Shown: positions 5,910 to 29,750 of the stretch, one piece after another
How positions within the stretch are numbered: position 1 is the stretch's first letter
How the letters are laid out: the number at the start of each line of letters is the position of its first letter
Assembly (NCBI RefSeq): GCF_000017845.1
Contig: NC_010546.1
Span: 1,530,001 to 1,562,000 of the forward strand
Direction of reading: 5' to 3'
DNA: 32,000 nt
DNA from: Crocosphaera subtropica ATCC 51142
GTDB taxonomy: Bacteria > Cyanobacteriota > Cyanobacteriia > Cyanobacteriales > Microcystaceae
Notes under the pieces: model-generated
What the model was told of the DNA's origin: nothing
What the model saw: only the letters and a program-made list of their open reading frames with translations
Databases searched by the model: none
Translations under genes and position numbers: made by a program

Positions 5910-6029
5910 ATGGATTGGCGTGTTTTAGTAGTGTTAGGACCGATTCTCATTGCAGCCGGCTGGGCAGGTTTTAATATTGCTGCTGCAGCTATTAGACAAG
6001 TACAAGGGTTCTTTAATAAAGAAGCTTAA
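5910..6029 (+). CDS. psbY: Photosystem II protein Y
   Basis: 39-aa ORF that I translated by hand because it is below the ORF-track cutoff: [39 protein letters not shown]. It has the MDWRV start and a single TM helix, as in cyanobacterial PsbY. An AGAGGA Shine-Dalgarno lies about 8 nt upstream and a strong terminator follows. Confidence 0.82.
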
Positions 6030-6054
6030 TTTTCCATAATTACCCATTTTACTG

Positions 6055-6113
6055 AGAGGAGCGTTTAAAGGTCTGTCTTTTCTAGACTTACAAAAAAACG
6101 CTTCTCTTTTTTT
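6055..6113 (+). terminator. Rho-independent terminator after psbY
   Basis: A 12-bp stem pairs AGAGGAGCGTTT (6055-6066) with AAACGCTTCTCT (6096-6107), with one G-U pair. A run of T residues follows to about 6113. Confidence 0.6.
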
Positions 6114-6162
6114 AATATTTATAGCAGTTTCCATTTGCATAGATTCAACATGAAAATACAGA

Positions 6163-6225
6163 CTCCCTCTGCTTCCCCTCTCCCTACTCACTTCACAGTA
6201 ACGTTTATTTTTGTCTAGGTACTTA
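6163..6225 (+). repeat. Dispersed ~65-bp repeat, copy 1 (C/T-rich head + conserved core)
   Basis: Core CTCACTTCACAGTAACGTTTATTTTTGTCTAGGTACTTA (6187-6225) differs at 3 of 39 positions from the copy at 17843-17881. It is clearly related to the inverted copy at 30066-30128. All three copies are preceded by a C/T-rich tract. This copy ends 3 nt before the pyrF ATG. Confidence 0.75.
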
Positions 6226-6228
6226 TCG

Positions 6229-6927
6229 ATGTCTGTTACTGATAAAATTATTGTTCCCTTAGATGTTCCCACAGAAGCAGCGGCGATCGCTTTATTGGAT
6301 CGCTTGCCGGATGTGACGTTTTGGAAAGTGGGATTAGAATTATTTGTGGCCACAGGCCCAACTATCCTCAAAGAACTTAAAAAGCGACACAAAAAGATTT
6401 TTCTTGACCTAAAATTTCATGATATTCCCAACACCGTAGCAGGAGCTTGTGCTAGTGCTTCTGAGTATGGGGTTGATTTAATGACCCTTCATGCCACTGC
6501 TGGAAAAACTGCCCTCAACGCAGCCACCGAAGCCATTGCCAAAAGCCCCTCACCCCCCCAATTATTAGCCATCACCCTCCTCACGAGCCTCAATTCACGG
6601 GATCTGGCATTCGACCTAAAAATCCCCCTAGAACTCCCTGAATACGCACTACAGATGGCTTTACTTGCTAAAGATTCAGGCATTAATGGGGCGGTATGTT
6701 CCCCCCAGGAAGTCGCCCAACTCAGACAAGTGTGTGGTAAGGATTTTGTGTTAGTCTGTCCTGGGGTTCGTCCTAACTGGGCTAATACAGGAGATCAACG
6801 GCGAGTGATGACTCCCAAACAAGCTCTAGACGCAGGGGCTGATTATTTAGTGATTGGTAGACCCATTACAATGTCAGATGATCCTGTTATGGCCTGGAAT
6901 CGTATTATTGATGAAGTTAGCACTTAG
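6229..6927 (+). CDS. pyrF: Orotidine 5'-phosphate decarboxylase
   Basis: Motifs [41 protein letters not shown] prefer ATG 6229 over the track's TTG 6211, which lies inside the dispersed repeat. Confidence 0.9.
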
Positions 6928-7489
6928 AAATCAAAACCCAGACACAAGAATCAGAAAATTGCTCAATATTGCACTGATAACGGTTCTTAGCTTTGTTTCT
7001 GTTGCCTCACCCATACAAGCCTTTTCTAAACGCAGTGAAACTTGTCCCTCGGATGTGGAAACCTTAATGACTCGGATGTTAAAAGATTTACCCGGTTACA
7101 GCAACCGAGTGGCACAACGGTCTAGAATTGGCGATCGCAGTGTCGAGATTTATAACTACATTTTAGTGGCAGGAAACCCAGAATTTGAACCTTTGCCCTT
7201 AAGTAATTTACAATATGAACCTGAGTTACCCGATGAAACAAAACAGGTCTTTTTTACCACATTAGAACGACAATATACACCCACAGAAGCCATTTTATTA
7301 CAAAACTATTATTGGTTATTTTTAACCCCAACCTCTGAGGGATGGCGACTCGTTTTATTATTTTCTCAATTGGCTGATTTAGAACAGGGTGATCTCCCTT
7401 TACCTCCCCAAAATGCCATGAATGGAGCGATCGGTCAAGGGATAAAACTATGGTTAAAAGATTGTCGAGCCGGGGTTTTAAAACAGTAA
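6911..7489 (+). CDS. Hypothetical exported protein (signal peptide)
   Basis: Start moved to ATG 6911 (MKLALRNQ...), which overlaps the pyrF stop by 17 nt. The hydrophobic segment [23 protein letters not shown] looks like a signal peptide. No recognisable domain. Confidence 0.55.
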
Positions 7490-7501
7490 ACTTTATACAT
7501 T

Positions 7502-8281
7502 ATGATGATTGAACCTTCAGGTGAACAACGAGAGATCAAATCTTTAGGAAGTGCTTCTATCGATGGCACGCCTTTAGATTATATTGTGGTGATGTCGGCG
7601 GTGGTGACAGTGCTGGCGTTTATCCCTTTTTCGATTACCATTGGATCGGGTGGGATCTTTCCCCTCAGTCAAGGTATTTTTCCCCTTCTCGGCTGGATTT
7701 TAGGCCCGGTGGGGGGTGCATTAGCCAGTGGTATCGGAACGCTCATGGGGGTGTTCTTAGCCCCTCACACCGCAGGTATTCCTCCCGTGTCTATTTTTGG
7801 AGCAATGGTAGCCAGTTTTGCTGCTGGTTGTATGGTCATTGGCAACAAACGCCGATATTGGTGGTTTGGGATGACTATTTTGTTTGTTATTGCCTATTTT
7901 CTTTATATCTCTCGTGCCATGAATAATGGGGTTTCTCTGTCTGTGATTATTAAGGGATCTTTTATTGATTGGTCGGGGTTATTATTGTTTATTTTACCCA
8001 CTCGAATTTTATTTGCAAAATGGATTAATAGCGAGAATTTACGGTTGGTTTGGTTGGGTTTATTTTTTGGTAGTTGGACCATTGCAGGAGTTTATCATAT
8101 TGCTCAAATTGTTATTACTTACGCTATGTTTAACTGGCCTGAAGAAATTTGGATCTTTTTAATTCCCATTATGCCATTAGAAAATTTAGTGCGTTCTTTA
8201 GTGGGGGCATTTATTGGGGTTCGGGTTATTTCTGGACTTCGGGCAATTGGGATCATGAAACCTGAAGCAGCAATTTATTAA
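7502..8281 (+). CDS. Polytopic membrane protein, probable substrate-binding (S) component of the adjacent ECF transporter
   Basis: 259-aa ORF with about 6 hydrophobic helices and Gly-rich helix faces (GWILGPVGGALASGIGTLMGVFLAP), typical of ECF S components. It sits immediately upstream of the fused EcfA-EcfA and EcfT genes. The substrate cannot be inferred. Confidence 0.55.
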   Translation: MMIEPSGEQREIKSLGSASIDGTPLDYIVVMSAVVTVLAFIPFSITIGSGGIFPLSQGIFPLLGWILGPVGGALASGIGTLMGVFLAPHTAGIPPVSIFGAMVASFAAGCMVIGNKRRYWWFGMTILFVIAYFLYISRAMNNGVSLSVIIKGSFIDWSGLLLFILPTRILFAKWINSENLRLVWLGLFFGSWTIAGVYHIAQIVITYAMFNWPEEIWIFLIPIMPLENLVRSLVGAFIGVRVISGLRAIGIMKPEAAIY

Positions 8282-12147: not shown

Positions 12148-13668
12148 ATGACTGGGAAATCAACGGCGATCGCAACACAAGACTACGATGTTATCATCAT
12201 TGGTTCAGGAATGGGGGGGTTAGTCACAGCCACCCAACTCGCTGCAAAAGGGGCCAAAGTATTAGTGTTAGAAAAGTATTTAATTCCTGGGGGAAGTGCC
12301 GGTTATTTTGAACGGGAAGGTTATCATTTTGATGTAGGTGCATCCATGATTTTTGGTTTTGGCAAGGAAGGTACAACCAACCTATTAACCCGTGCTTTAG
12401 ATGCTGTTAACGTCAGCCTAGAAACCATCCCCGATCCTGTACAAATACATTACCATTTACCTAACAATTTAGAGCTAAAAGTACACAAAAATTATGATAA
12501 ATTTATTGACGAATTAACCGCTAAATTTCCCCATGAAAAGAAAGGAATTCGTCGCTTTTATGATGAGTGCTGGAAAGTTTTTAATTGTCTTAATGCAATG
12601 GAATTACTTTCTTTAGAAGAACCTAGGTACTTGATGAGAGTGTTTTTCCAGCATCCTTTTGCCTGTTTAGGGTTAGTGAAATATTTACCTCAAAATGTAG
12701 GGGATATTGCCCGTCGTTACATCAGTGATCCTGAACTTTTAAACTTCATTGATATGGAATGTTATTGCTGGTCAGTGGTTCCTGCGGATAAAACCCCAAT
12801 GATCAATGCTGGTATGGTATTTTCAGATCGGCATTATGGAGGAATCAATTATCCCAAAGGAGGAGTCGGAACCATTGCAGAAAAATTAGTAGAAGGGTTA
12901 GAAAAGTTGGGAGGAGAAATTCAATATAAAGCCCGTGTTACTAACATTTTAATGGAAACAGGAAAAGCGGTCGGAGTCCGATTAGCCAATGGAAAAGAAT
13001 ATCGGGCAAAACGCATTGTTTCCAATGCCACTCGTTGGGATACCTTTGAAAAATTGTTGCCTAAAAATGAGATGCCTACAAAAGAAGAAAAATGGCAACA
13101 ACGCTATGAAAAATCCCCTAGTTTTCTGAGTCTTCATTTAGGAGTTAAATCTGATATTTTACCGATAGGAACTGAATGTCATCATATTCTCTTAGAACAA
13201 TGGGAAGCGATGGAAGATGAACAAGGAACCATTTTTGTCTCAATTCCTACCCTTCTTGATCCCAGTTTAGCACCAGAAGATCATCACATAATTCATACCT
13301 TCACCCCTAGTTATATGAAAGAATGGGAAGGACTTTCTTCTCAAGCGTATCACCATAAAAAGGAAGCAGCAGCCAGTCATTTAGTTGAACGATTAGAAAA
13401 GATTTTTCCTGGATTAATTGAAGGGTTAGACTATCAAGAAGTTGGAACCCCACGCACTCACCGACGCTTTTTAGGTCGAGATCAAGGGACTTATGGACCA
13501 ATTCCCCGTCGCAAGTTACCAGGGTTGTTAGGAATGCCTTTTAATCGCACTGTTATCCCTGGATTATACTGTGTAGGAGATAGTACCTTTCCAGGTCAAG
13601 GACTCAATGCTGTGGCTTTTTCTGGGTTTGCTTGTAGCCATCGTATTGCTGTCGATTTAGGGTTATAG
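12148..13668 (+). CDS. crtH: Carotenoid (prolycopene) cis-trans isomerase
   Basis: 506-aa ORF. It is collinear with plant CRTISO and cyanobacterial CrtH as I recall them: [100 protein letters not shown]. Confidence 0.92.
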
Positions 13669-13939
13669 GTCTTAACAATTCATTGTTATATTTATTTGCA
13701 GTTCTTTAAGTGAATCTACCCTTGAAGAATACAGACTTATTGTTGATGATAAGTATATGTTGGTATTTTCTAAAGTTTAGAGTTAATCATGTTTTTTATC
13801 AGTTAAGATGGAAATTGAAACTAACTACCAAAATAAAAGTGATCTTTATTTTTGCTAACCATGTAATTGATTTAAAAAAAGATAGTGTGAATTTTTATGA
13901 GACAATTCAATTTTTTATTAATAAAGTGCTGTTAGTACA

Positions 13940-15316
13940 ATGTTACATTCTAACCAAAATAATAATGTCGAGAAATCCCTGCTTAAAGAAATCCTAAACC
14001 CATCAAATTATGATACAAATCTACAAAACATCACTCAGATAATTGCCGATTTTTTCTTAGTAGATTTTTGTCTAATTATTTCTGATTTCAATCATTTAAG
14101 GTATTTTTATAACTTAAGAAATTCTCATGCCAATAATTTTAAAATTTCTCCAAGCAAACTATCTAATTTAATACAAATTCCTTGGATAATAGAATTAAGA
14201 AGTGAGTCAAGATTAAAATCAATTAGAGACTTAAACCACAAAAAATATCAAAAATTGTTACCTTTTTTTGAAGAAATTGGAATCAAGACTTTATTAGGAA
14301 AAAATACTAACTTTAAAGGACAAACCAATGGCATTATTATTTTAGGTAAACAAGATCCTCATCAATGGAGTCAGAAAGAGAAAACAAAATTAAACGAAGT
14401 AGCTAAGATTGTTGGTATTTTATGTCATTTAAGTCAAGTGAACATGATTCTTGATGAAAAAAATCTTAGTAAAGATTCATCCTTTTCTCTAAGCAATATC
14501 CCTAAACTTCTAGAAGAAAATCCCATTCTGAAACTATGGTGGCAAAGTACAAGAAAACAATTAGAAAAACAATTAGAGTGGAATAGAAAAGTTATTTATA
14601 ATATGATCACTATTATGAGTGATCAAACTCGTAATCCCTTAGCTATTATTAAAATGGGAATTACGATTTTACAAACTAGAGAATTGTCTTCAGAAGATTT
14701 CAACAAAAGAATAACAATGTTAGAAGAAGCCTGGAGTAATCTAAACGAGATTAATGAAAAAATATTACAACTAAAACATTTAAAATCCCAAAATCTTTAC
14801 TCTAACTTAGTTGACACTAATTTAAAAGAATTGATTGAAAAGATCACTAAGTCTTATTCAAAGCAATGGCAGGAAGACTCTAAAAAATCTATAAAATTGA
14901 CCACAAATTTCAATATTAACCAAGAGGAATTAATCAATACAGATATTCAACATCTAACCTATATTATAGAAGAACTATTAACAAATGCCAGTAAATTTTC
15001 AGTCCCTAACTCCACTGTGACTTTATCAGTTACCCAAGAAAATGACACTAATAACTCAGAGATTATTATCACCTTTTCTAATATTAGTGAGTATGGTTGC
15101 CAAGACAATATAAATGAATTTTTTGAACCGTTTTATCGAGAGCAAATTGTCATAGATACGGCCATTCCTGGTATTGGAGTTGGACTGAATATTGTTAAAG
15201 ATTTAGTAGGACTACTCCAGGGAAAAATTAGCGTTGATTGCCTTCCCACAGAAAACCCTAAACATTGTAAAATTGTATTTAGATTGGTTCTTCCTCAATC
15301 ATTATCCTCATCATAA
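13940..15316 (+). CDS. GAF + histidine-kinase-like protein with degenerate H-box and G1 box (likely pseudo-kinase)
   Basis: 458-aa ORF. The N-terminus is GAF-like (FLVDFCLIIS...GIKTLLGK...NGIIILGKQDPHQWSQKEKTKL). The DHp-like segment reads IMSDQTRNPLAII where kinases have SHELRTPL, so His is replaced by Asp. N-box ELLTNASKFS, F-box FEPFYR and G2 GIGVGLNIVK are present. The G1 DxGxG position reads SNISEYG. Confidence 0.75.
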   Translation: MLHSNQNNNVEKSLLKEILNPSNYDTNLQNITQIIADFFLVDFCLIISDFNHLRYFYNLRNSHANNFKISPSKLSNLIQIPWIIELRSESRLKSIRDLNHKKYQKLLPFFEEIGIKTLLGKNTNFKGQTNGIIILGKQDPHQWSQKEKTKLNEVAKIVGILCHLSQVNMILDEKNLSKDSSFSLSNIPKLLEENPILKLWWQSTRKQLEKQLEWNRKVIYNMITIMSDQTRNPLAIIKMGITILQTRELSSEDFNKRITMLEEAWSNLNEINEKILQLKHLKSQNLYSNLVDTNLKELIEKITKSYSKQWQEDSKKSIKLTTNFNINQEELINTDIQHLTYIIEELLTNASKFSVPNSTVTLSVTQENDTNNSEIIITFSNISEYGCQDNINEFFEPFYREQIVIDTAIPGIGVGLNIVKDLVGLLQGKISVDCLPTENPKHCKIVFRLVLPQSLSSS

Positions 15317-15328
15317 TTTAAAGGTTGT

Positions 15329-17011
15329 ATGCTAACGAAACGCGGTTCCTCTAAGTCACTGCGCTGGCAACATTCTCCATATTCGGCCATGGGTCGTCAA
15401 TGGGAAGTTTTCTTATTTACGTTTCAATTTTTACTCTTTCTATTATGGGATAAATTCTTAAGAAATAATAGTTCAAAACAACGGCAAAAAAGAGCAAGAT
15501 GGTTAGTTAAAAATTTGCTGCAATTAGGACCTACATTTATTAAAATTGGTCAATCTTTATCCACTCGTGCCGATTTAATTCCTTTAGAGTATATTCAAGA
15601 ATTAAGTCAACTTCAAGATAATGTTCCTCCATTTAGTACCGAGGAAGCGATCGCCATGATTGAAACAGAGTTAGGTCAACCTATTTATGATTTATTTGAC
15701 AGTTTTGAAACAGAACCCTTAGCCTCAGCCAGTTTAGGACAAGTTCATAGGGCAAAATTATATACAGGTAAAGAAGTTGTTGTTAAAGTACAAAGACCTG
15801 GATTAGAAAAAATATTTAATTTAGATTTTGAGGTTGTTCACCGTTTAATTCGTATCTTAACTCGATATTTTCAGTCCTTTAAAAAGTATAATTTAGAAGC
15901 GATTTACGAAGAATTTTTTGAACTGTTATTCCAAGAAATTGACTATATTCATGAAGGAAAAAATGCAGAAAGATTTCGTGATAATTTCCGAGGTTATTCT
16001 CAAATAAAAGTACCTAAAATTTACTGGAAATATAGCACCAAGAAAATTTTAACTTTAGAGTATTTACCAGGAATCAAAGTGGATGATCGAGCCGCATTAG
16101 AAGCGAATAATGTTAATTTAGATCGAGTAATTCAATTAGGAATCTGCTCTTATTTAAAACAGTTATTAATCGATGGTTTTTTTCAGTCTGATCCTCATCC
16201 TGGAAACATGGCAGTGAATCAACGGGGAGAACTAATTTTTTATGATTTTGGAACCATGGCCGAAGTTAAAACTTTTGCCAAAGATCAAATGATTCAAGTA
16301 TTTTTTGCTATCTTAAAAAAGGATACAGATAAAGTAGTTGACAATCTAGTTTACATGGGTTTAATTGAACCCTTAAACGATATGACTCCGGTGAAAAGAA
16401 TTGTCTCTTTTTTATTGGAGAATTTTCGTGATAAACCGGTTGATGTTCGTGCTTTTGAACAGATCAGTGATGAAGTGTATCTAATGTTCAAAAGTCAACC
16501 GTTTCGCTTACCCCCACAAATGACTTTTATCCTCAAATCTTTGACTACTTTAGATGGTATCGCTAGAGCATTAGACCCTGAGTATAATTTATTAGCAGCT
16601 AGTCAACCCTTCGTTAAGAATTTAGCCTTAAGTGGTAGTCGAGGTAGTTTAGTTACAGCAATCATTAAACAAGCAAAAGGTGTTATTAAAGATACTCTCA
16701 GTCAACCCAATACATCCGAGAAGTTTCTTAGAGGTTTAGAGGAAAGAATAGATAGAGGAGAATTACAGTTTAGAATTCGCTCTCTAGAAAGTGAAAGAGT
16801 ATTAAAACGTATTAATTTAGGAATAAAAAGTTTGATTTATGCCTGTTTGACTGGGTTTGCCTTATTGTCAGCATCTATTTTAATGACAACAATTTACATT
16901 AAATTTGCTTTAATTTGTTTTGGTTTTGCAGGACTTTTTAGTTTGTTTTTGTTTAAGTCCTTACTTTCTTTAATGCTACAAGAGAAAGTTGATAGATTAT
17001 TAGAGAAATAA
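15329..17011 (+). CDS. ABC1/UbiB-family atypical protein kinase
   Basis: 560-aa ORF with motifs GPTFIKIGQSLSTRADL, PLASASLGQVHRAKL, VVKVQRPG, EIDYIHEGKNAERF, FFQSDPHPGN, YDFG. It has a C-terminal hydrophobic tail. Confidence 0.9.
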   Translation: MLTKRGSSKSLRWQHSPYSAMGRQWEVFLFTFQFLLFLLWDKFLRNNSSKQRQKRARWLVKNLLQLGPTFIKIGQSLSTRADLIPLEYIQELSQLQDNVPPFSTEEAIAMIETELGQPIYDLFDSFETEPLASASLGQVHRAKLYTGKEVVVKVQRPGLEKIFNLDFEVVHRLIRILTRYFQSFKKYNLEAIYEEFFELLFQEIDYIHEGKNAERFRDNFRGYSQIKVPKIYWKYSTKKILTLEYLPGIKVDDRAALEANNVNLDRVIQLGICSYLKQLLIDGFFQSDPHPGNMAVNQRGELIFYDFGTMAEVKTFAKDQMIQVFFAILKKDTDKVVDNLVYMGLIEPLNDMTPVKRIVSFLLENFRDKPVDVRAFEQISDEVYLMFKSQPFRLPPQMTFILKSLTTLDGIARALDPEYNLLAASQPFVKNLALSGSRGSLVTAIIKQAKGVIKDTLSQPNTSEKFLRGLEERIDRGELQFRIRSLESERVLKRINLGIKSLIYACLTGFALLSASILMTTIYIKFALICFGFAGLFSLFLFKSLLSLMLQEKVDRLLEK

Positions 17012-24003: not shown

Positions 24004-24077
24004 GGGCTTGTAGCTTAGTGGATTAGAGCGTGTGGCTACGGACCACAAGGTCGGGGGTTCGAGTCCCTCCAAGCCCG
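24004..24077 (+). tRNA. tRNA-Arg (anticodon ACG)
   Basis: I folded the 74-nt cloverleaf by hand. Acceptor stem GGGCTTG/CAAGCCC with discriminator G. D-arm GCTT/GAGC. Anticodon arm TGTGG-CTACGGA-CCACA. Variable loop AGGTC. T-arm GGGGG-TTCGAGT-CCCTC. CCA is not encoded. Confidence 0.95.
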
Positions 24078-24092
24078 TCAAGATTAAACAAA

Positions 24093-24488
24093 ATGAGTAA
24101 TATGCGAGTGATTTCTACTGATAACGCTCCTGCTCCTGTGGGTCCCTATAATCAGGCGATCGCAGCACAAGGAGAGTTATTATTTATCTCTGGACAAATT
24201 CCCTTAGACCCCAAAACGGGGCAACTGGTTGGGGACACTGATATTAGTCAGCAAACCCAACAAGTGATGAAAAATATAGAAGCGATATTAAAAGCAGCGG
24301 GGGCAAATTGGCAGAATGTGGTTAAAACCACTGTTTTTCTGAGCAATTTAGAAAACTTCGCCCCTATGAATCAAGTTTATGCTCAATATTTCCCAGAAGC
24401 GACCGCACCGGCTCGAGCTTGTGTAGAAGTATCCCGTCTTCCTAAGGATGTTTTAGTCGAGATTGAATGTATTGCGGTCATTTCTTAG
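24093..24488 (+). CDS. ridA: RidA (YjgF/YER057c/UK114) family reactive-intermediate deaminase
   Basis: [56 protein letters not shown]. The track ORF starts at 24030 inside the tRNA, so I trimmed it to ATG 24093. Confidence 0.9.
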
Positions 24489-24829: not shown

Positions 24830-25108
24830 CTATTTCAAAACCGATGTAATAATAACCGTAATGGTTGCACTGGCAATTAAAGTAAAAGCAAGTTGCACAA
24901 CCCATTGTGTTGCTTGTCGATAGTCAGAAAAACGTTCATCAAACCGCTTCATTTCGGATGATAAGGTTTCAACATCGGATGCTAAGTGTTCGACATCAGA
25001 GGATAAGTGTTCAACATCAGATGTCAGTTTTTCTACATTACCTGTAAGTTTATCCAGTTTTTGGATGACATCGGTTAAAGTGGGTTCTGGGTTAGGGGTT
25101 GTGGTCAT
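24830..25108 (-). CDS. Tail-anchored coiled-coil protein (XhlA-like architecture), hypothetical
   Basis: Start set at ATG 25108 (MTTTPNPEPT...); the track uses TTG 25156. It has heptad repeats (LTSDVEHLSSDVEHLASDVETLSSEMKRF) and a single C-terminal TM helix (WVVQLAFTLIASATITVIITSVL). Confidence 0.6.
   Translation of the reverse strand: MTTTPNPEPTLTDVIQKLDKLTGNVEKLTSDVEHLSSDVEHLASDVETLSSEMKRFDERFSDYRQATQWVVQLAFTLIASATITVIITSVLK
24956..25039 (-). repeat. Four in-frame imperfect 21-bp tandem repeats inside the coiled-coil gene
   Basis: Plus-strand units are GGATGATAAGGTTTCAACATC, GGATGCTAAGTGTTCGACATC, AGAGGATAAGTGTTCAACATC and AGATGTCAGTTTTTCTACATT. Each encodes one heptad (SDVEHLx). Confidence 0.75.
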
Positions 25109-25162
25109 TATTATTTCTACTCTTAAAATTTTCTTTTTTTTACTATTATATAGCAAAATTTA

Positions 25163-25184
25163 GGGACATAATCTATTATGTCCC
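25163..25184. other. Perfect 10-bp inverted repeat (hairpin/operator candidate) between the ParB-like and coiled-coil genes
   Basis: GGGACATAAT ct ATTATGTCCC. On the minus strand it follows the ParB-like stop (25219) and is followed by TAAATTTTG. Confidence 0.5.
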
Positions 25185-25218
25185 TGTTGTTATTAATTGA
25201 TTTAATCAGTATCTAATC

Positions 25219-25932
25219 TTATTGATTAGAAAAGTGATCAATGATTTTTATCATTCTTTTCTCTGCTATACCGTCTACTCGACTAACTACATCACTACAA
25301 GACTTAAACATTCCATTTTTTTCTCGTTCATTGATAATTTTTTCAGGAATATTCTTGGGAACTTTAATACGACGTAAATGAGATATAAGCGTTGATAATT
25401 CAAAGGTATTAAGTGCTTCTAAACAGTCAATGGGTTTAGGAAGACGTTCTTTGATTTCTGTGAGTTGCATATTTAGTATTTCAATTTCCCTTTTATAATT
25501 ATCTTTTACCTCTTTAAGTTGTCTTTCAAACCTCGCCTCAATATTATTTAAACGAGATTCCATATTTAAGAGTTTTTGATCGGAATTATCGTTTACTGTT
25601 GGTATAGGTGGTAAAATTTGAGCAGATTTTCGGAAAATTTCTATCTGTGTTTTGATCGCATCTTCTTTGTTGTCTTCAATAATAAAAGCACTGATCATTT
25701 CTCCCTTTCTGGGATCAATTTCTCTTGCTCTTACAGCAGTATAATATTCAAAATATCCAGAGATAACCTGATAAGATTCTGAATTGTTTCCCTCTAATAT
25801 AATAGGGTTAATAATGCCTTCTGCGCTTAAAATTGCTTGGGCAGCTTTGTCGATGTCATCTTCATTAAATTGAGAACGTTCTACTGATGATTGAATTCGT
25901 TTTACAGACACCAATGAAATTAGCAATTTCAT
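25219..25932 (-). CDS. Degenerate ParB N-terminal-domain protein + coiled coil + ComEA-like helix-hairpin-helix domain
   Basis: 237-aa ORF. The N-terminus is collinear with ParB/Spo0J box I-II (VSVKRIQSS..RSQFNEDDIDKAAQAILSAEGIINPIIL....YQVISG), but the GERRxRA arginine patch reads GYFEYYTA. The central coiled coil is LLNMESRLNNIEARFERQLKEVKDNYKREIEILNMQLTEIKERL. The C-terminal HhH pattern is LNTFELSTL...IPEKIINEREKNGMFKSCSDVVSRVDGIAEKRMIKIID. An AGGAGA Shine-Dalgarno lies within the 3' end of the upstream gene. Confidence 0.75.
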   Translation of the reverse strand: MKLLISLVSVKRIQSSVERSQFNEDDIDKAAQAILSAEGIINPIILEGNNSESYQVISGYFEYYTAVRAREIDPRKGEMISAFIIEDNKEDAIKTQIEIFRKSAQILPPIPTVNDNSDQKLLNMESRLNNIEARFERQLKEVKDNYKREIEILNMQLTEIKERLPKPIDCLEALNTFELSTLISHLRRIKVPKNIPEKIINEREKNGMFKSCSDVVSRVDGIAEKRMIKIIDHFSNQ

Positions 25933-25934
25933 AA

Positions 25935-27281
25935 TTATTCTCCTATTTTTTCTAATATTTCATCTGCTAAAATTTCAAACTCTTGTGCTGATTTAGAATT
26001 GGGTTTAAAGTCTAAAACTGAGATAGGTTCAGGAATCTCTATATCTCCTACAATTTGCATTTTTTCAGAACATTTAGCTAAATCATCCCTATCATAAATT
26101 ACAGTTTCCATCATCGGTATTTGATAACGTTGAGGAATAACTTCTAAACGTTTTCTTAGAGTAGATTGTACAAATCTTGCGTTAGTAGATATTTTACAAG
26201 CTAAAATTCCTAAAACTTCGATAGAGTCTTTCTTTATAAATCTTTTTGAACCATCATTTTGCTTAATAAAGTTTTTTACATTTGTGAGTCCCTGATTAGC
26301 AAAAGGTTTTAAATCAGAAGGAATAATTAAATAGTCAGCAGTAATTAAAGCAATACTAGCATATAAATTTAAAGAGGGAGGAGTGTCTATAAGTACAATA
26401 TCATATTTATCTTTTACTTTTTCTAGTTTTTCATTTAAAATAAACCGACTTTGTGCAATAGGAATAAGTTGTTTTTCATATTCCATCAAGTCAATATGAG
26501 AAGGAATAACATGAATCTCAGGATCAGAAAATTGAGATTTTATAGCAACTTCTTCAATACTATAAAAATCTTCTGATTGTAAGATATGAAGAATATTACA
26601 ATCTTTAATATTATCAAATTCTTCATCTTCAAATTTGACTAAACCAGTGGCAAAAGTTGTATTAGCTTGACTATCTAAATCAATGACTAAAACTCGTTTT
26701 CCTTTCTTGCTAAAAGCAGCAGCTAAATTAACAACAGTAGTTGTTTTTCCAACACCACCCTTATTATGATAAACGGCAATAACTTTCATGGGTAATTTTT
26801 TAGACTCCTTAATAGATGTTTGAGAAACTTTAGGAATAGAAAGGGATGAAGAAGTAGAGAACTTTTGACTTAAACTCTCCTTACCAATTAAAGCATTTAT
26901 TTTGCTGATATTGTTAGCAAGGTTTTCCCCTTGACAATAAAAGATAAACTTTAATTTATCTTTTTGCCGTTGATAAATTCGGAATTCTTTACCATTGGTT
27001 AATACCCCATAAAAACTTTGCGTTTGAATCAAATAATGTCCCAAACGACGCACATGATGATCTAAATTTTCTTGAGGGTGTTTCGCTTCAATGACAACAC
27101 AAGAAGAAAAATTCTTCATTTTTTTAGAAGCAACTGTCAAGAAATCTAAGCGAATATTGCCATAGATAACTTCTTGATGCCAATTATCAGAAGAATAACC
27201 TAATTTTGGGAGTAAATATTGAACAATTAGCTTACTCTCTACTTCCCTTTCATTACGACAGGATTTAGGATGAAATTGCAA
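25935..27281 (-). CDS. Fusion protein: HsdR_N-like PD-(D/E)xK restriction-endonuclease-fold domain + ParA/MinD-family deviant Walker-A ATPase
   Basis: 448-aa ORF with a TTG start. Residues ~10-105 read NEREVESKLIVQYLLPKLGY...IRLDFLTVA...CVVIEAKHPQ...YGVLTNGKEFRIYQ. This fits the HSDR_N_2 pattern, with the D...E-x-K residues present. Residues ~165-448 carry KVIAVYHNKGGVGKTTTVVNLAAA (KGGxxGKT), VLVIDLDSQANTT and YDIVLIDTPPSL. Its stop lies 2 nt from the ParB-like start. Confidence 0.8.
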   Translation of the reverse strand: MQFHPKSCRNEREVESKLIVQYLLPKLGYSSDNWHQEVIYGNIRLDFLTVASKKMKNFSSCVVIEAKHPQENLDHHVRRLGHYLIQTQSFYGVLTNGKEFRIYQRQKDKLKFIFYCQGENLANNISKINALIGKESLSQKFSTSSSLSIPKVSQTSIKESKKLPMKVIAVYHNKGGVGKTTTVVNLAAAFSKKGKRVLVIDLDSQANTTFATGLVKFEDEEFDNIKDCNILHILQSEDFYSIEEVAIKSQFSDPEIHVIPSHIDLMEYEKQLIPIAQSRFILNEKLEKVKDKYDIVLIDTPPSLNLYASIALITADYLIIPSDLKPFANQGLTNVKNFIKQNDGSKRFIKKDSIEVLGILACKISTNARFVQSTLRKRLEVIPQRYQIPMMETVIYDRDDLAKCSEKMQIVGDIEIPEPISVLDFKPNSKSAQEFEILADEILEKIGE

Positions 27282-27617
27282 TGGACTATTTCCTCAATAA
27301 CACAAGATAGAGGATAAAATTAAATAAGAATAAGAGTTAGGAACAAGTAAGAATGCAAAATCAACTACTTTTCAACAGTTTATAATTACTATTATCTCTA
27401 AGTATCTACTGAATAGAAAATGGTAAGATTGCTGAAGATTTTAACAGTTTTTTGAGTCTTCCTAAGTAGTTATACATAAACCAGAGAAGTTATATTAAGA
27501 ATGACGACACAGTTAACACACAATCTTAATTTGCTCTTTTTTAGATGATAGTTAACTTAGTTAAATTCCTCATGTTATACTAATTCGTAACTTTTACCAT
27601 AGAGGAGATTAAACTTA

Positions 27618-29750
27618 ATGTCCAGAAAAGAGGCAGATTTTTCCTTAGACGAAGTAGAAGAAAAATATAGAAAATTAGTTCACTTAAATCCCGAAAAAGC
27701 TGAATATCGATATTTCTTAGCAAAAGTATTGTGGGAAAAAGGAGATAAACAAGGAGCTTTTGCTGCTTATCAAAAAACCTTTGCCTTACCCTCTCCTCCT
27801 ACTGAAGCTTATAGAGATTTTGGTAAAATTTTACAAAAAGAATATAATCTCAAAAGATTGATCAATTTTTATACAGAAGGATTAGAACTTCCTTACACAA
27901 AAGTCTTACAATACTTGGATTTCTTAGAAGTTAAAGATTATGAAAAAATCGGAGAAATCTTTGAAAATAAAAAAGAAACTGCTAAACTATGGACAACGTA
28001 TCTGATAGGAATTCAACATCATCCTAGTGCTAAGAGTCTGTATCTTAAATTAATAAAATTGTTTTTAAAAACAGTAGAAACTCTAAATAATAAGTTTAAT
28101 AGACACTTCAAATTAAAACAAACCAATTCAGACCAAAAAACTAAAAAATTAAATTCTCATTCTTTACAAAATGAAGAAATTTGGAACTTGATCAATAGCC
28201 CAAACTTAATGATCAAACAAAATACTACAAAAACAGAAAACAAAAAGCTTGTAAAAAGTTTAATCGTTAACTGTAACTATACAATCATTAACTTAGATAA
28301 TATAACAGATTTACAAAGAAACGAATTAAAGTTATTAGGGATTGAGACTAATTATTTAAAACAAAATCAATATAGTGAACTCATAAAAAGTAAACAAAAA
28401 AATAGTTCCAGCCATGACAATAAACCTCTTGTTGCTGTAGAAGCTGATCAACGTAATCAATTTCAACTATCTTCAATTATTAATCAATATTTTAGTGCTA
28501 TTTGTCCTTATACCGGAAAGGATTTATCTTCTAACCAATCTTTGTTAGTCTTACCTCAAGGATATAACTCTTGGATATTTTATCGTTTTGTAAGTCAGAA
28601 GAATGTTTTTTATATTGCTACAGGAAAACCCGATAGTGGTTTTCCAAAATCTTTTATTTATTTTCCAAAAGAAGAAATAGCGATTATATTATTTGATCAA
28701 TTTAATGAAAAAGACATTAAAGAAGCTATTGAACTCTTCAAAAGAAGCGTGTTCAAAAATTGGAATGATATCAAAAAATACCTTAATAATTCTCTACATA
28801 AACAAGTTATTATCCCGATTAGTTTTTGGCATTTTGCTCATCATTATTGGAATGAGTTAACAGGAATTTATAAACTCTATGATAATGATGTTTTAGAACA
28901 AGTAGATAAATTTTTAGTAGGTACAGAACATTATGGTGAGATTAAAGATATTTTTCCTGAAATACCAGAAAATAAAATTGATAAAATATCGTCTAAATAT
29001 CTGAACAAAGAAATACTTAAAAATAATTATTTTGCTCTAAGAGTCGGTTCAAATTTCATAACAGAAGACTTAGCAAACCGTATTTATAAAGTTTCACGAC
29101 AACAAGCGACCCCTCAGTTTTTATCTGAAATTGAAAGCATCAAAAAAAAGCATTTTCCTTTATTATTAGTCACTATACGATTAGATACAAGGGTTTGGAT
29201 TTCTCAAATTAATGGAATTGTAAATATTGTTAAAAAATTAGCTGAAGACTTTCCTAAAATTGGACTCGTTATCGATGGGTTTTCTTTACCTTGTGGTTTA
29301 GTTGGATTATCTTGGTATTGGGCGCAAAAGTGTATTGAAAAAGAAACACAAGCTAGTTTAGAAATTCGTTCTTTATTACCTGCTGAGATTCCTGTCTATG
29401 ATATTGTTGGTTCTACTTTATACGAAAATGTTATTTGGAATCATGTTATAGATTTATATTTAGCACAACATGGTTCAGCCCAACATAAAATTGGTTGGAT
29501 TGCTAATAAACCAGGGGTTATTCATACTAATAAATCAACTTTTTCTGCTCCTCACTTATTATCAGTAACGACTACAGCAAAAGAAAATAGCATTGAGCCG
29601 ATTCTTATTCCTGAAGAACATATTATTGCTTTAGAAGAAATCCATAAACCAAATAAAAATGATAAACGAAAAAATTTAGAAAACTATGATTGTAATTGGG
29701 AAATTATGTATAATGAACTGTTTAAATTAATTCAAAAAATTAATAATTAG
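27618..29750 (+). CDS. Large orphan protein: N-terminal TPR-like helices, Lys/Asn-rich linker, uncharacterised ~430-aa C-terminal region
   Basis: 710-aa ORF with a strong Shine-Dalgarno (AGAGGAG, 27601-27607). It is transcribed divergently from the nuclease-ParA gene. TPR-like segment: EKYRKLVHLNPEKAEYRYFLAKVLWEKGDKQGAFAAYQKTFAL. I could not assign a family to the C-terminal part. Its motifs FWHFAHHYWNELTG and LLLVTIRLDTRVWISQINGIV...KIGLVIDGFSLP loosely recall GT-B-type transferases. Confidence 0.7.
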   Translation: MSRKEADFSLDEVEEKYRKLVHLNPEKAEYRYFLAKVLWEKGDKQGAFAAYQKTFALPSPPTEAYRDFGKILQKEYNLKRLINFYTEGLELPYTKVLQYLDFLEVKDYEKIGEIFENKKETAKLWTTYLIGIQHHPSAKSLYLKLIKLFLKTVETLNNKFNRHFKLKQTNSDQKTKKLNSHSLQNEEIWNLINSPNLMIKQNTTKTENKKLVKSLIVNCNYTIINLDNITDLQRNELKLLGIETNYLKQNQYSELIKSKQKNSSSHDNKPLVAVEADQRNQFQLSSIINQYFSAICPYTGKDLSSNQSLLVLPQGYNSWIFYRFVSQKNVFYIATGKPDSGFPKSFIYFPKEEIAIILFDQFNEKDIKEAIELFKRSVFKNWNDIKKYLNNSLHKQVIIPISFWHFAHHYWNELTGIYKLYDNDVLEQVDKFLVGTEHYGEIKDIFPEIPENKIDKISSKYLNKEILKNNYFALRVGSNFITEDLANRIYKVSRQQATPQFLSEIESIKKKHFPLLLVTIRLDTRVWISQINGIVNIVKKLAEDFPKIGLVIDGFSLPCGLVGLSWYWAQKCIEKETQASLEIRSLLPAEIPVYDIVGSTLYENVIWNHVIDLYLAQHGSAQHKIGWIANKPGVIHTNKSTFSAPHLLSVTTTAKENSIEPILIPEEHIIALEEIHKPNKNDKRKNLENYDCNWEIMYNELFKLIQKINN

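Follow-up and report, generated by a model that had tools for sequence, protein, structure and literature searches.

A predicted HsdR-type nuclease-fold domain fused to a ParA/Soj ATPase, with a ParB-like partner, in cyanobacterial chromosomes

ParA/MinD ATPases are general positioning machines of bacteria and, to our knowledge, the described members differ by their partners and cargos and not by an enzyme domain. In canonical ParB, the usual partner protein of chromosomal ParABS systems, an arginine patch (GERRxRA) mediates the binding of cytidine triphosphate (CTP) and the formation of a sliding clamp. How cyanobacteria segregate their chromosomes and control ploidy is poorly understood, and some model species have, as far as we know, no canonical ParABS. 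For their carboxysomes, cyanobacteria use ParA-like ATPases with unrelated small partners (PMC6328274, PMC7182216). Here we analyse a window of 32,000 nucleotides (nt), the whole stretch of Crocosphaera subtropica ATCC 51142 from position 1,530,001 to 1,562,000 of NC_010546.1 (forward strand), which holds a two-gene module, A-B: gene A encodes a predicted restriction-type nuclease-fold domain fused to a ParA/Soj ATPase, and gene B, directly downstream, a ParB-like protein.

The fusion A and its partner B

The features of gene A, with positions counted from the first letter of the window and lengths in amino acids (aa), are as follows:

25935..27281, minus strand: gene A, a 448-aa fusion of a predicted HsdR-type nuclease-fold domain, a linker and a ParA/Soj ATPase; TTG start, stop codon at 25935-25937
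26862..27281, minus strand: N-terminal domain (N-domain, residues 1-140), putative PD-(D/E)xK domain of HSDR_N_2 type, from Pfam, an AlphaFold2 (AF2) model, Foldseek and tblastn
E11/E13/E15 on helix 1, D46 at 27144-27146, E65 at 27087-27089 and K67 at 27081-27083, minus strand: candidate active site
26790..26861, minus strand: Ser-rich flexible linker (residues ~141-164), with predicted local distance difference test (pLDDT) values below 50 at residues 143-162 of the full-length model
25938..26789, minus strand: ParA/Soj-type ATPase core (residues 165-448), from Pfam, NCBIfam, PDB and Foldseek
26739-26762, minus strand: deviant Walker A motif KGGVGKTT (residues 174-181) with signature Lys174

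Gene A begins a few bases downstream of a Shine-Dalgarno-like GAGGAA, and its orthologues share the start position with the sequence M-x-F-x-P. The original prediction, made from the letters of this open reading frame (ORF), was of an HSDR_N-like domain fused to a complete ParA/MinD ATPase with the catalytic residues of both halves apparently intact. Pfam, all 24 orthologues compared and the AF2 fold agree with that description, and every motif it quoted is present: NEREVESKLI at residues 10-19, IRLDFL at 43-48 (with D46), VVIEAKH at 62-68 (with E65 and K67) and LTNGKEFRIYQ at 94-104. In the 24 orthologues, drawn from Nostocales, Oscillatoriales, Coleofasciculaceae and Chroococcales, residues E11, E13, E15, K17, D46, E65, K67, Y83, T95 and N96 are invariant, as are the Walker A, A' and B motifs of the ATPase.

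The profile search of the N-terminal part returned a significant match to HSDR_N_2 over residues 17-114, which for the window's own A is a marginal pass (E=1.6e-5; 25.4 bits, the gathering score being 25) and which is found in 24 of the 24 orthologues (best E=9.5e-8). HSDR_N reached E=3e-4 in A, under its gathering score, and was matched by 22 of the 24. Residues 10-106 also align with the nuclease end of type IIG restriction-modification enzymes from haloarchaeal viruses (tblastn, E=3e-6). Pfam found no helicase domain in A, where ResIII gave a chance-level P-loop match (E=0.16).

Because Foldseek with the full-length model of A returned ParA-type matches only, the N-domain was modelled separately, with AF2 on residues 1-141 and a 32-sequence family alignment. 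The model (pLDDT 95.8; predicted template modelling score 0.90) presents an alpha-beta-beta-beta-alpha-beta core made of helix 11-26, strands 34-40, 43-50 and 61-66, helix 73-87 and strand 91-95. D46 is placed in strand 2, E65 at the end of strand 3 and K67 just after it, with E11, E13 and E15 on helix 1; the predicted topology puts D, E and K at the canonical strand positions of a PD-(D/E)xK site. Further along, R79...Y83 occupies the place of the HsdR QxxxY motif, which is said to have been described for EcoR124I HsdR, and T95-N96-G97 comes after it. Over the wider N-domain family E11, D46, E65, K67, Y83, T95 and N96 are at least 90% conserved, and the mean column identity of the domain is 79% across orders. 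The assignment of the N-domain to an HsdR-type PD-(D/E)xK fold with a conserved active-site signature is robust at the level of sequence and model, and its catalytic-type residues are, judging from the alignments, under strict purifying selection.

The linker is of a different nature: its length varies from ~20 to ~70 aa among orthologues, and columns 157-220 of the 24-orthologue alignment are gap-rich and unconserved. Beyond it, the C-terminal half of A matches AAA_31 (E=6e-60, residues 165-341) and CbiA (E=3e-19) in Pfam, and carries DLDSQAN at 201-207 (Walker A', D201/D203) and LIDTPP at 297-302 (Walker B, D299). Soj/ParA proteins are its matches among PDB sequences (1e-25 to 1e-19) and among structures (Foldseek, target template modelling (TM) score 0.89-0.90), the closest by both sequence and fold being those of H. 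pylori, T. thermophilus and other chromosomal Soj/ParA; the NCBIfam models SopA and RepA match the core in part. By all these comparisons, the C-terminal half of A is an ordinary, complete ParA core.

Gene B and the ends of the operon comprise the following:

25219..25932, minus strand: gene B, 237 aa, starting 2 nt past the stop of A
25663..25896, minus strand: ParB/Srx-like N-terminal domain of B (residues ~13-90), with the motifs PR..F and G.INPIVVR...YEV.G kept
25423..25620, minus strand: predicted coiled coil of B (residues ~105-170), from weak matches to coiled-coil families and structures; poorly conserved and of varying length
25240..25377, minus strand: predicted C-terminal helix-hairpin-helix (HhH) DNA-binding module of B (residues ~186-231), from HHH_6 (1.4e-4), HHH_3 and ComEA HhH models
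25161..25186, no strand assigned: terminator-like GC-rich hairpin 33 nt past B (consensus match on both strands, pattern match only)
27282..27617, no strand assigned: region between A and a divergent 710-aa ORF, with a GC content of 27%; presumed promoter region, in which no repeat array or conserved motif was found

To place the pair in context we compared 80 loci from a one-genome-per-species collection and four from contig look-ups, the window being the 85th. At 84 of the 84 other loci the gene immediately after A is a homologue of B, in most cases overlapping A by 1-4 nt, and after clustering of all flanking ORFs A and B were the sole families common to all 85. The co-occurrence with the ParB-HhH gene that the original prediction had raised is in this set universal. 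Its remark that no replication or partition cargo was visible holds in part: homologues of A do not stand beside replication genes, but B itself is a partition-type partner, co-operonic at all 84 loci. The hairpin past B is the probable end of the two-gene operon.

The first module of B resembles ParB. Against Pfam ParB_N the window's B scores below the gathering threshold (E=8.7e-5; 22.9 against 26.3), 25 of 25 B orthologues match the family (best 1e-10), and the B family profile matches structures of Noc, Spo0J and ParB. The GERRFRAA of Spo0J aligns with G-x-F-E-Y-Y-A-A of the B family (GYFEYYTA in the window), in which E62, Y63 and Y64 are invariant. As read from this alignment, B is without the arginine patch through which canonical ParB binds CTP.

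At the other end, the C-termini of the 25 B orthologues match HHH_6 in 13 cases, DUF655 in 12 and HHH_3 in five, and no helix-turn-helix (HTH) family of Pfam matches B. In three lineages (loci L040, L083 and L079) a Rho_N/SAP-like domain stands in the place of the HhH (Pfam Rho_N, best 1.1e-8), an exchange suggesting that what is required of this C-terminus is generic nucleic-acid binding. As a separate observation, the top PDB sequence match of the B family (E=5e-5) is to 9k3a chain B, residues 1335-1404 of a 1717-aa phage 'Tail protein', with which it has the motif ...Y.VVD......AA..ARE.DPRK.E... in common.

Distribution and inheritance of the pair

Full-length homologues of A (57-91% identity) are found in Crocosphaera/Cyanothece, Nostoc, Anabaena, Calothrix, Fischerella, Chlorogloeopsis, Scytonema, Microcoleus, Tychonema, Oscillatoria, Allocoleopsis, Symploca, Halothece, Aphanothece and other genera, many of them on replicons of 5-10 Mb. 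In the one-genome-per-species collection at least 546 pattern matches to A were confirmed, the best 80 of them all from cyanobacteria; with two patterns per gene, this amounts to at least a few hundred species. Every named source is cyanobacterial bar one metagenome bin labelled Actinomycetota, and the nearest neighbours of A in sequence follow taxonomy. The surroundings are shared within some groups: a family-2 glycosyltransferase downstream and IleRS upstream of the pair in Nostocales; a desaturase, a pyridoxal-phosphate enzyme and a formyltransferase in Microcoleus. These recurrent neighbours are housekeeping genes, with no hsdM or hsdS among the conserved ones, and the flanks vary among lineages, even between the window and a congeneric genome. 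Taken globally, A-B is an ancient, vertically inherited chromosomal two-gene module, so far seen only in cyanobacteria.

From its architecture and AT-rich setting, the original prediction had leaned towards a defence effector. The searches point elsewhere. In PLSDB, no plasmid match spans both domains of A, all matches being below 60% identity and essentially to the ATPase part alone; phage genomes have no match to B and match the N-domain through restriction enzymes only; and the fusion was not found among IMG/VR viral contigs. With PADLOC-DB 2.0, A gave a single match, local to 47 residues at Walker A (PDC-M28B), and B none; among the 710-aa ORF and ten recurrent neighbours, only one Uma2 protein (candidate PDC-S03) was matched. 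The homologues thus sit as a vertical pair on multi-Mb chromosomes among housekeeping genes, not in defence islands or on plasmids, with no specific PADLOC match. These negative results together indicate that the pair neither partitions plasmids nor belongs to mobile defence islands, and we consider it unlikely to act as a plasmid partition or mobile anti-phage system. What had been staked on the nuclease fold fared better: there is a fold match, D, E and K fall where they should, and the homologues are not set among plasmid replication genes with centromere repeats.

Two candidate labels were accordingly dropped: a mobile-element origin of A-B, since the plasmid, phage and IMG/VR collections are without the fusion, and a defence classification, since PADLOC gave the P-loop-local match and the one Uma2 neighbour only.

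A wider search shows that the fusion extends beyond these close homologues. The N-domain profile, run against 1.84 billion cluster representatives, matched 256 proteins at E<=0.001, the strong matches being the same fusion. Eight weaker matches (E ~1e-24 to 1e-9) were scanned with Pfam, and all eight (P0162, P0163, P0181, P0182, P0186, P0188, P0191 and P0200) join an N-domain to ParA; their named cluster members belong to other cyanobacterial lineages, e.g. Myxacorys and Pseudocalidococcus. The other matches range from ~160 to 1,360 aa, some of them of ~160-270 aa. Two deserve mention in their own right: P0218 (1111 aa) is a NACHT/STAND NTPase with HEAT repeats that begins with an HSDR_N_2-like domain, and P0152 (650 aa) holds RloB, HSDR_N and ParA in one protein.

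Searching from one divergent fusion led to a second clade, with Tll1395 of Thermosynechococcus vestitus BP-1, a Synechococcus PCC 6312 protein and members in Nostoc, Calothrix, Anabaena and Rivularia (P0286-P0403). Its proteins are ~29% identical to the window's A over both domains and keep D, ExK and the Gln of QxxxY, a Gln that is also present in stand-alone relatives of the N-domain. In locus L087, where tll1395 and the next gene together occupy 6001-8149, the second gene overlaps the first and encodes 262 aa; by eye, this partner shows '...LIPLIIRS...YEVVFG...', a coiled coil and the HhH 'VPGLTIDEAQVVIG', the three-part layout of B. An hhalign comparison of the Tll1395 partner with the B family was not significant, the resemblance being by inspection. 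That a second clade keeps both the fusion and an overlapping partner speaks for the fusion itself being old and functional. A full-text literature search found no paper mentioning tll1395.

Some loci carry a further gene. At 24 of the 85, the window not being one of them, A is preceded on the opposite strand by an extra stand-alone ParA-like gene (~294-318 aa), in Nostocales and also in Kastovskya, Floridaenema and Aphanothece (e.g. L022 4697-5581 and L062 4732-5628, both minus strand). No partner ORF stands beside it in L062, the one locus inspected.

Proposed mechanism and competing explanations

The most likely mechanism, to which we give about an even chance, is that A-B forms a chromosomal ParA/ParB-like DNA-handling module with ATP-gated nuclease domains under the regulation of B. 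Mechanistically, ATP binding would lead the ParA cores of A to form a sandwich dimer on DNA, and this dimer would pair two otherwise monomeric nuclease domains on the duplex. Cleavage, nicking or tight binding of a site or structure could then be gated by the ATP switch. Partner B would sit on DNA through its C-terminus, oligomerise through its coiled coil and contact A through its basic N-terminal peptide (MKL..VAVKKI..R) and its ParB-like domain. By stimulating ATP hydrolysis it would reset or localise A. The ATP-dependent sandwich dimerisation and DNA binding of A are proposed here from family membership, and the nuclease activity, the A-B interaction and the role are likewise drawn by analogy. 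The role we regard as most likely is a housekeeping transaction on the DNA of the chromosome, which in cyanobacteria is often polyploid.

Several findings weigh against this mechanism. First, the structural matches of the N-domain are weak. Against the PDB, Foldseek ranks the HsdR fragment 3h1t highest (E=0.012, probability 1.0, query TM score 0.56), followed by BpuSI, EcoR124I HsdR and other restriction-endonuclease-like proteins, none at E<=0.001, and its sequence profile found no match among PDB sequences, even at E=10. Second, the Gln of the HsdR QxxxY is Arg or Lys in the main clade (R79-L-G-H-Y83 in A itself), so the activity of the domain could be altered; D and K are both lost in at least one divergent family member (P0162), which would make catalysis dispensable in some lineages. 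Third, no target site emerged: a repeat finder over 24.4-30.2 kb gave no centromere-like array, and the search for k-mers upstream of A and palindromes in and around the operon in 28 diverse loci returned conserved-codon words only. Full-text literature searches also found no paper on the fusion.

Inheritance holds a further point of the same kind. In two Crocosphaera proteins, P0014 and P0050 (loci L016 and L028), the N-domain is 90-91% identical to that of the window's A and the ATPase 49-52%, below the 70-75% that the window's ATPase shares with Nostoc; their partner B is also divergent (276-277 aa). This mosaic implies, as far as the sequences can tell, that the N-domain has stayed constant while the ATPase and its partner were exchanged as a cassette or co-evolved rapidly, and cassette-like diversification is more usual in conflict systems.

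Composition completes the list, as a housekeeping role does not predict the compositionally foreign look of the operon. The AT-rich, HIP1-free block noticed in the window is real: GC is 0.26-0.31 over ~24.5-30 kb, and between 24156 and 30742 there is no HIP1 site (GCGATCGC), of which the whole 32 kb has 20. Among the loci, which are phylogenetically related and hence not independent counts, operon GC is below that of the flanks in 79 of 79, by 7.2 points on average. GC at third codon positions is 0.28 against 0.39 in flanking genes (~11 points), a deficit seen for A in 73 of 73 loci and for B in 72 of 73. In all, 119 kb of A genes contain three HIP1 sites and 64.5 kb of B genes four. The density is 0.03-0.06 sites per kb in A and B, against 0.77 in ORFs of the flanks and still 0.34 in those matched for GC deficit; the operon is ~10-fold depleted relative to composition-matched neighbours. 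In the BP-1 paralogue the trend has the same direction but is weaker.

Taken in the original prediction as pointing towards defence, this composition proves instead to be a constant property of the operon, AT-rich and HIP1-poor in every lineage. Recent horizontal transfer was rejected as the cause of the low GC, given the deficit in 79 of 79 loci, the taxonomic tree and the synteny within orders, the last two of which in themselves argue that the AT-richness is not of recent foreign origin. Low GC alone was likewise rejected as the cause of the HIP1 depletion, in view of the GC-deficit-matched ORFs. Something keeps the A-B genes AT-rich and HIP1-poor.

Best placed among the alternatives, though in our judgement unlikely, is an ordinary partition system of a chromosome, chromid or integrated element. 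The nuclease fold would here be a non-catalytic DNA-binding or autoregulatory appendage, comparable to the HTH of type Ia ParA, and B the centromere-binding protein. The translationally coupled parA-parB layout at 84 of 84 loci would fit this explanation, as would an ATPase closest to chromosomal Soj/ParA by sequence and fold, the ParB_N-like domain and DNA-binding C-terminus of B, and the existence of two paralogous clades, as with multiple par systems. However, B has neither the GERRxRA patch for CTP nor the HTH of canonical ParB, and the parS consensus is not above chance in the window (one match with three mismatches against 0.92 expected) and absent from the 86 loci searched. No repeat array or conserved motif surrounds the operon, which is found neither on plasmids nor beside replication genes. 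Finally, the invariant acidic and Lys residues of the nuclease site would be unexpected in a purely structural DNA-binding domain.

An effector of defence or conflict is more improbable still: the ATPase-gated nuclease would destroy invading DNA or trigger abortive infection, with B as a sensor or antitoxin-like regulator, perhaps as an old system fixed in the chromosome. A nuclease joined to an ATPase switch does suit such effectors, and the nearest non-fusion relatives of the N-domain include NACHT/STAND-HEAT effector domains (P0218) and restriction enzymes, with a RloB domain added in the variant P0152; nevertheless, neither the pair nor its neighbours has a specific PADLOC match, and plasmid, phage and viral contig collections are without the fusion. 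The AT-rich, HIP1-poor operon of 79 loci resembles foreign DNA, and in Crocosphaera the ATPase varies together with B, cassette-like, next to an N-domain that stays constant, but inheritance is broadly vertical, with the N-domain identity across orders given above, and the pair is present in hundreds of species, not patchily. Likewise, flanks that differ between lineages, and between the window and its congener, have to be set against housekeeping genes as conserved neighbours and stable synteny in Nostocales and in Microcoleus.

A ParA/MinD-type positioning of non-DNA cargo, with B as cargo adaptor and the N-domain merely strengthening attachment to the nucleoid, has a precedent in the carboxysome pairs of cyanobacteria (PMC6328274, PMC7182216) and could draw on the high divergence between the partners of the two clades and on the orphan ParA-like gene adjoining 24 loci, but it is very improbable, as all recognisable modules of B are nucleic-acid-related (ParB/Srx; HhH or Rho_N/SAP), no organelle or structural genes are conserved nearby and the conservation of the active site is left unexplained.

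Returning to the DNA-handling module, a stronger version of it can be put forward tentatively, although we would not expect it to hold in full. The fusion may represent a new functional class of ParA/MinD in which the ATPase itself acts enzymatically on the matrix it binds, as an ATP-gated nuclease regulated by a ParB-like protein, kept in two paralogous clades throughout the cyanobacterial radiation for chromosome biology, and with AT-richness and HIP1 avoidance functionally linked to it. If this were true, its possible roles would include controlling or turning over the chromosome copies of polyploid cells, or processing ends or junctions of DNA as chromosomes segregate, while the AT-richness and HIP1 avoidance might, for example, hold a dangerous enzyme at low expression or mark its own locus. 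A restriction-type active site on ParA and a ParB-like partner without the CTP switch, in hundreds of species and two old clades, would constitute a distinct branch of ParA/MinD. The constant compositional anomaly, if confirmed with phylogenetic controls, also bears on the maintenance of HIP1 and of genome composition. Fusions of this type occur in Nostoc, Anabaena, Fischerella, Chlorogloeopsis, Crocosphaera/Cyanothece and Thermosynechococcus (tll1395), and several of the cyanobacteria bearing them are genetically manipulable.

The remaining window and comparison with known systems

Around the operon, the genes of the window have ordinary chromosomal functions (c-di-GMP signalling, a gamma-glutamyltranspeptidase, an ECF-type transporter, kinases and a tRNA-Arg). 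Closest to A-B are:

27618-29750, plus strand: the 710-aa ORF, divergent from A, 28% GC, within the HIP1-free block, with a weak N-terminal TPR match
24830-25156, minus strand: 108-aa ORF downstream of B, matching the ssr2422 thylakoid membrane protein family (NCBIfam, 2.4e-32)
24004-24077, plus strand: tRNA-Arg(ACG)

The 710-aa ORF has no NCBIfam or PADLOC family and is not beside the operon in any of the 84 other loci. Within the 108-aa ORF, 21-nt (heptad) tandem repeats at 24954-25037 encode SDVEHL-type units; a similar gene, LPP/FAZ1_C-like, precedes A in locus L004 of Crocosphaera. A genomic island at the tRNA-Arg was considered and rejected, the 3' end of the tRNA not being repeated elsewhere in the window. 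A listed 152-aa ORF (24030-24488) begins within this tRNA, its more probable start being the Met of MSNMRVIS at ~24094, and its product looks by eye like a RidA/YjgF-family protein. GC is also low (0.27-0.33) at 13500-16500, a second AT-rich stretch that takes in a histidine-kinase-like ORF (13940-15316) and the first part of an ABC1-kinase ORF (15329-17011).

The architecture of A is already in databases, since the Joint Genome Institute annotates some members as 'BcsQ/predicted type IV restriction endonuclease', a name for both halves. Compared with described systems, A-B fails defining features of HsdR, canonical ParB, plasmid par loci and the catalogued defence families, each of which it resembles in part. 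With chromosomal ParABS (Soj/Spo0J) it shares an operon of two genes in which the ATPase comes first, the deviant Walker A KGGVGKT with its signature lysine, and a partner that starts with a ParB/Srx-type domain. In contrast to ParABS, A adds a 140-aa PD-(D/E)xK domain, and B, without GERRxRA and HTH, ends in HhH; no parS was found.

The nuclease domains of HsdR (EcoR124I) and of type IIG enzymes (BpuSI) belong to the same fold family by Pfam, by the top Foldseek matches and by tblastn, and HsdR likewise has D...ExK on strands 2 and 3, then a helix with xxxY and a TNG strand. On the other hand, A has no superfamily 2 helicase motor, methyltransferase or specificity subunit, its motor being a ParA-type dimerisation switch; the QxxxY Gln is Arg/Lys in the A clade, and the structural E-values are weak (at least 0.01). 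Type Ia plasmid ParA proteins (P1 ParA, F SopA) also combine a ParA core with an extra N-terminal DNA-interacting domain, but theirs is a winged HTH and that of A a nuclease fold, on chromosomes and on no PLSDB plasmid.

McdAB, whose Cyanothece McdA is among the structural matches, is again a chromosomal pair of a ParA-like ATPase and a fast-evolving coiled-coil partner; McdA has no N-terminal domain, however, McdB neither a ParB-like nor an HhH module, and no link of A-B to carboxysome genes was seen. OLD/Gabija, Wadjet and STAND NTPases with restriction-endonuclease effectors share the principle of a nucleotide switch coupled to a nuclease, and a relative of the N-domain occurs in P0218. Their ATPases are of another class, and A-B differs in having no PADLOC match past the P-loop, vertical inheritance with near-housekeeping conservation and a housekeeping context. 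The Tll1395-type fusions, for their part, form a separate, deeply diverged clade in which the QxxxY Gln is kept and hhalign detects no homology between the partner and B, but they have in common with A-B the HSDR_N_2 and ParA halves at 29% identity, the D/ExK residues and an overlapping partner of ~260 aa.

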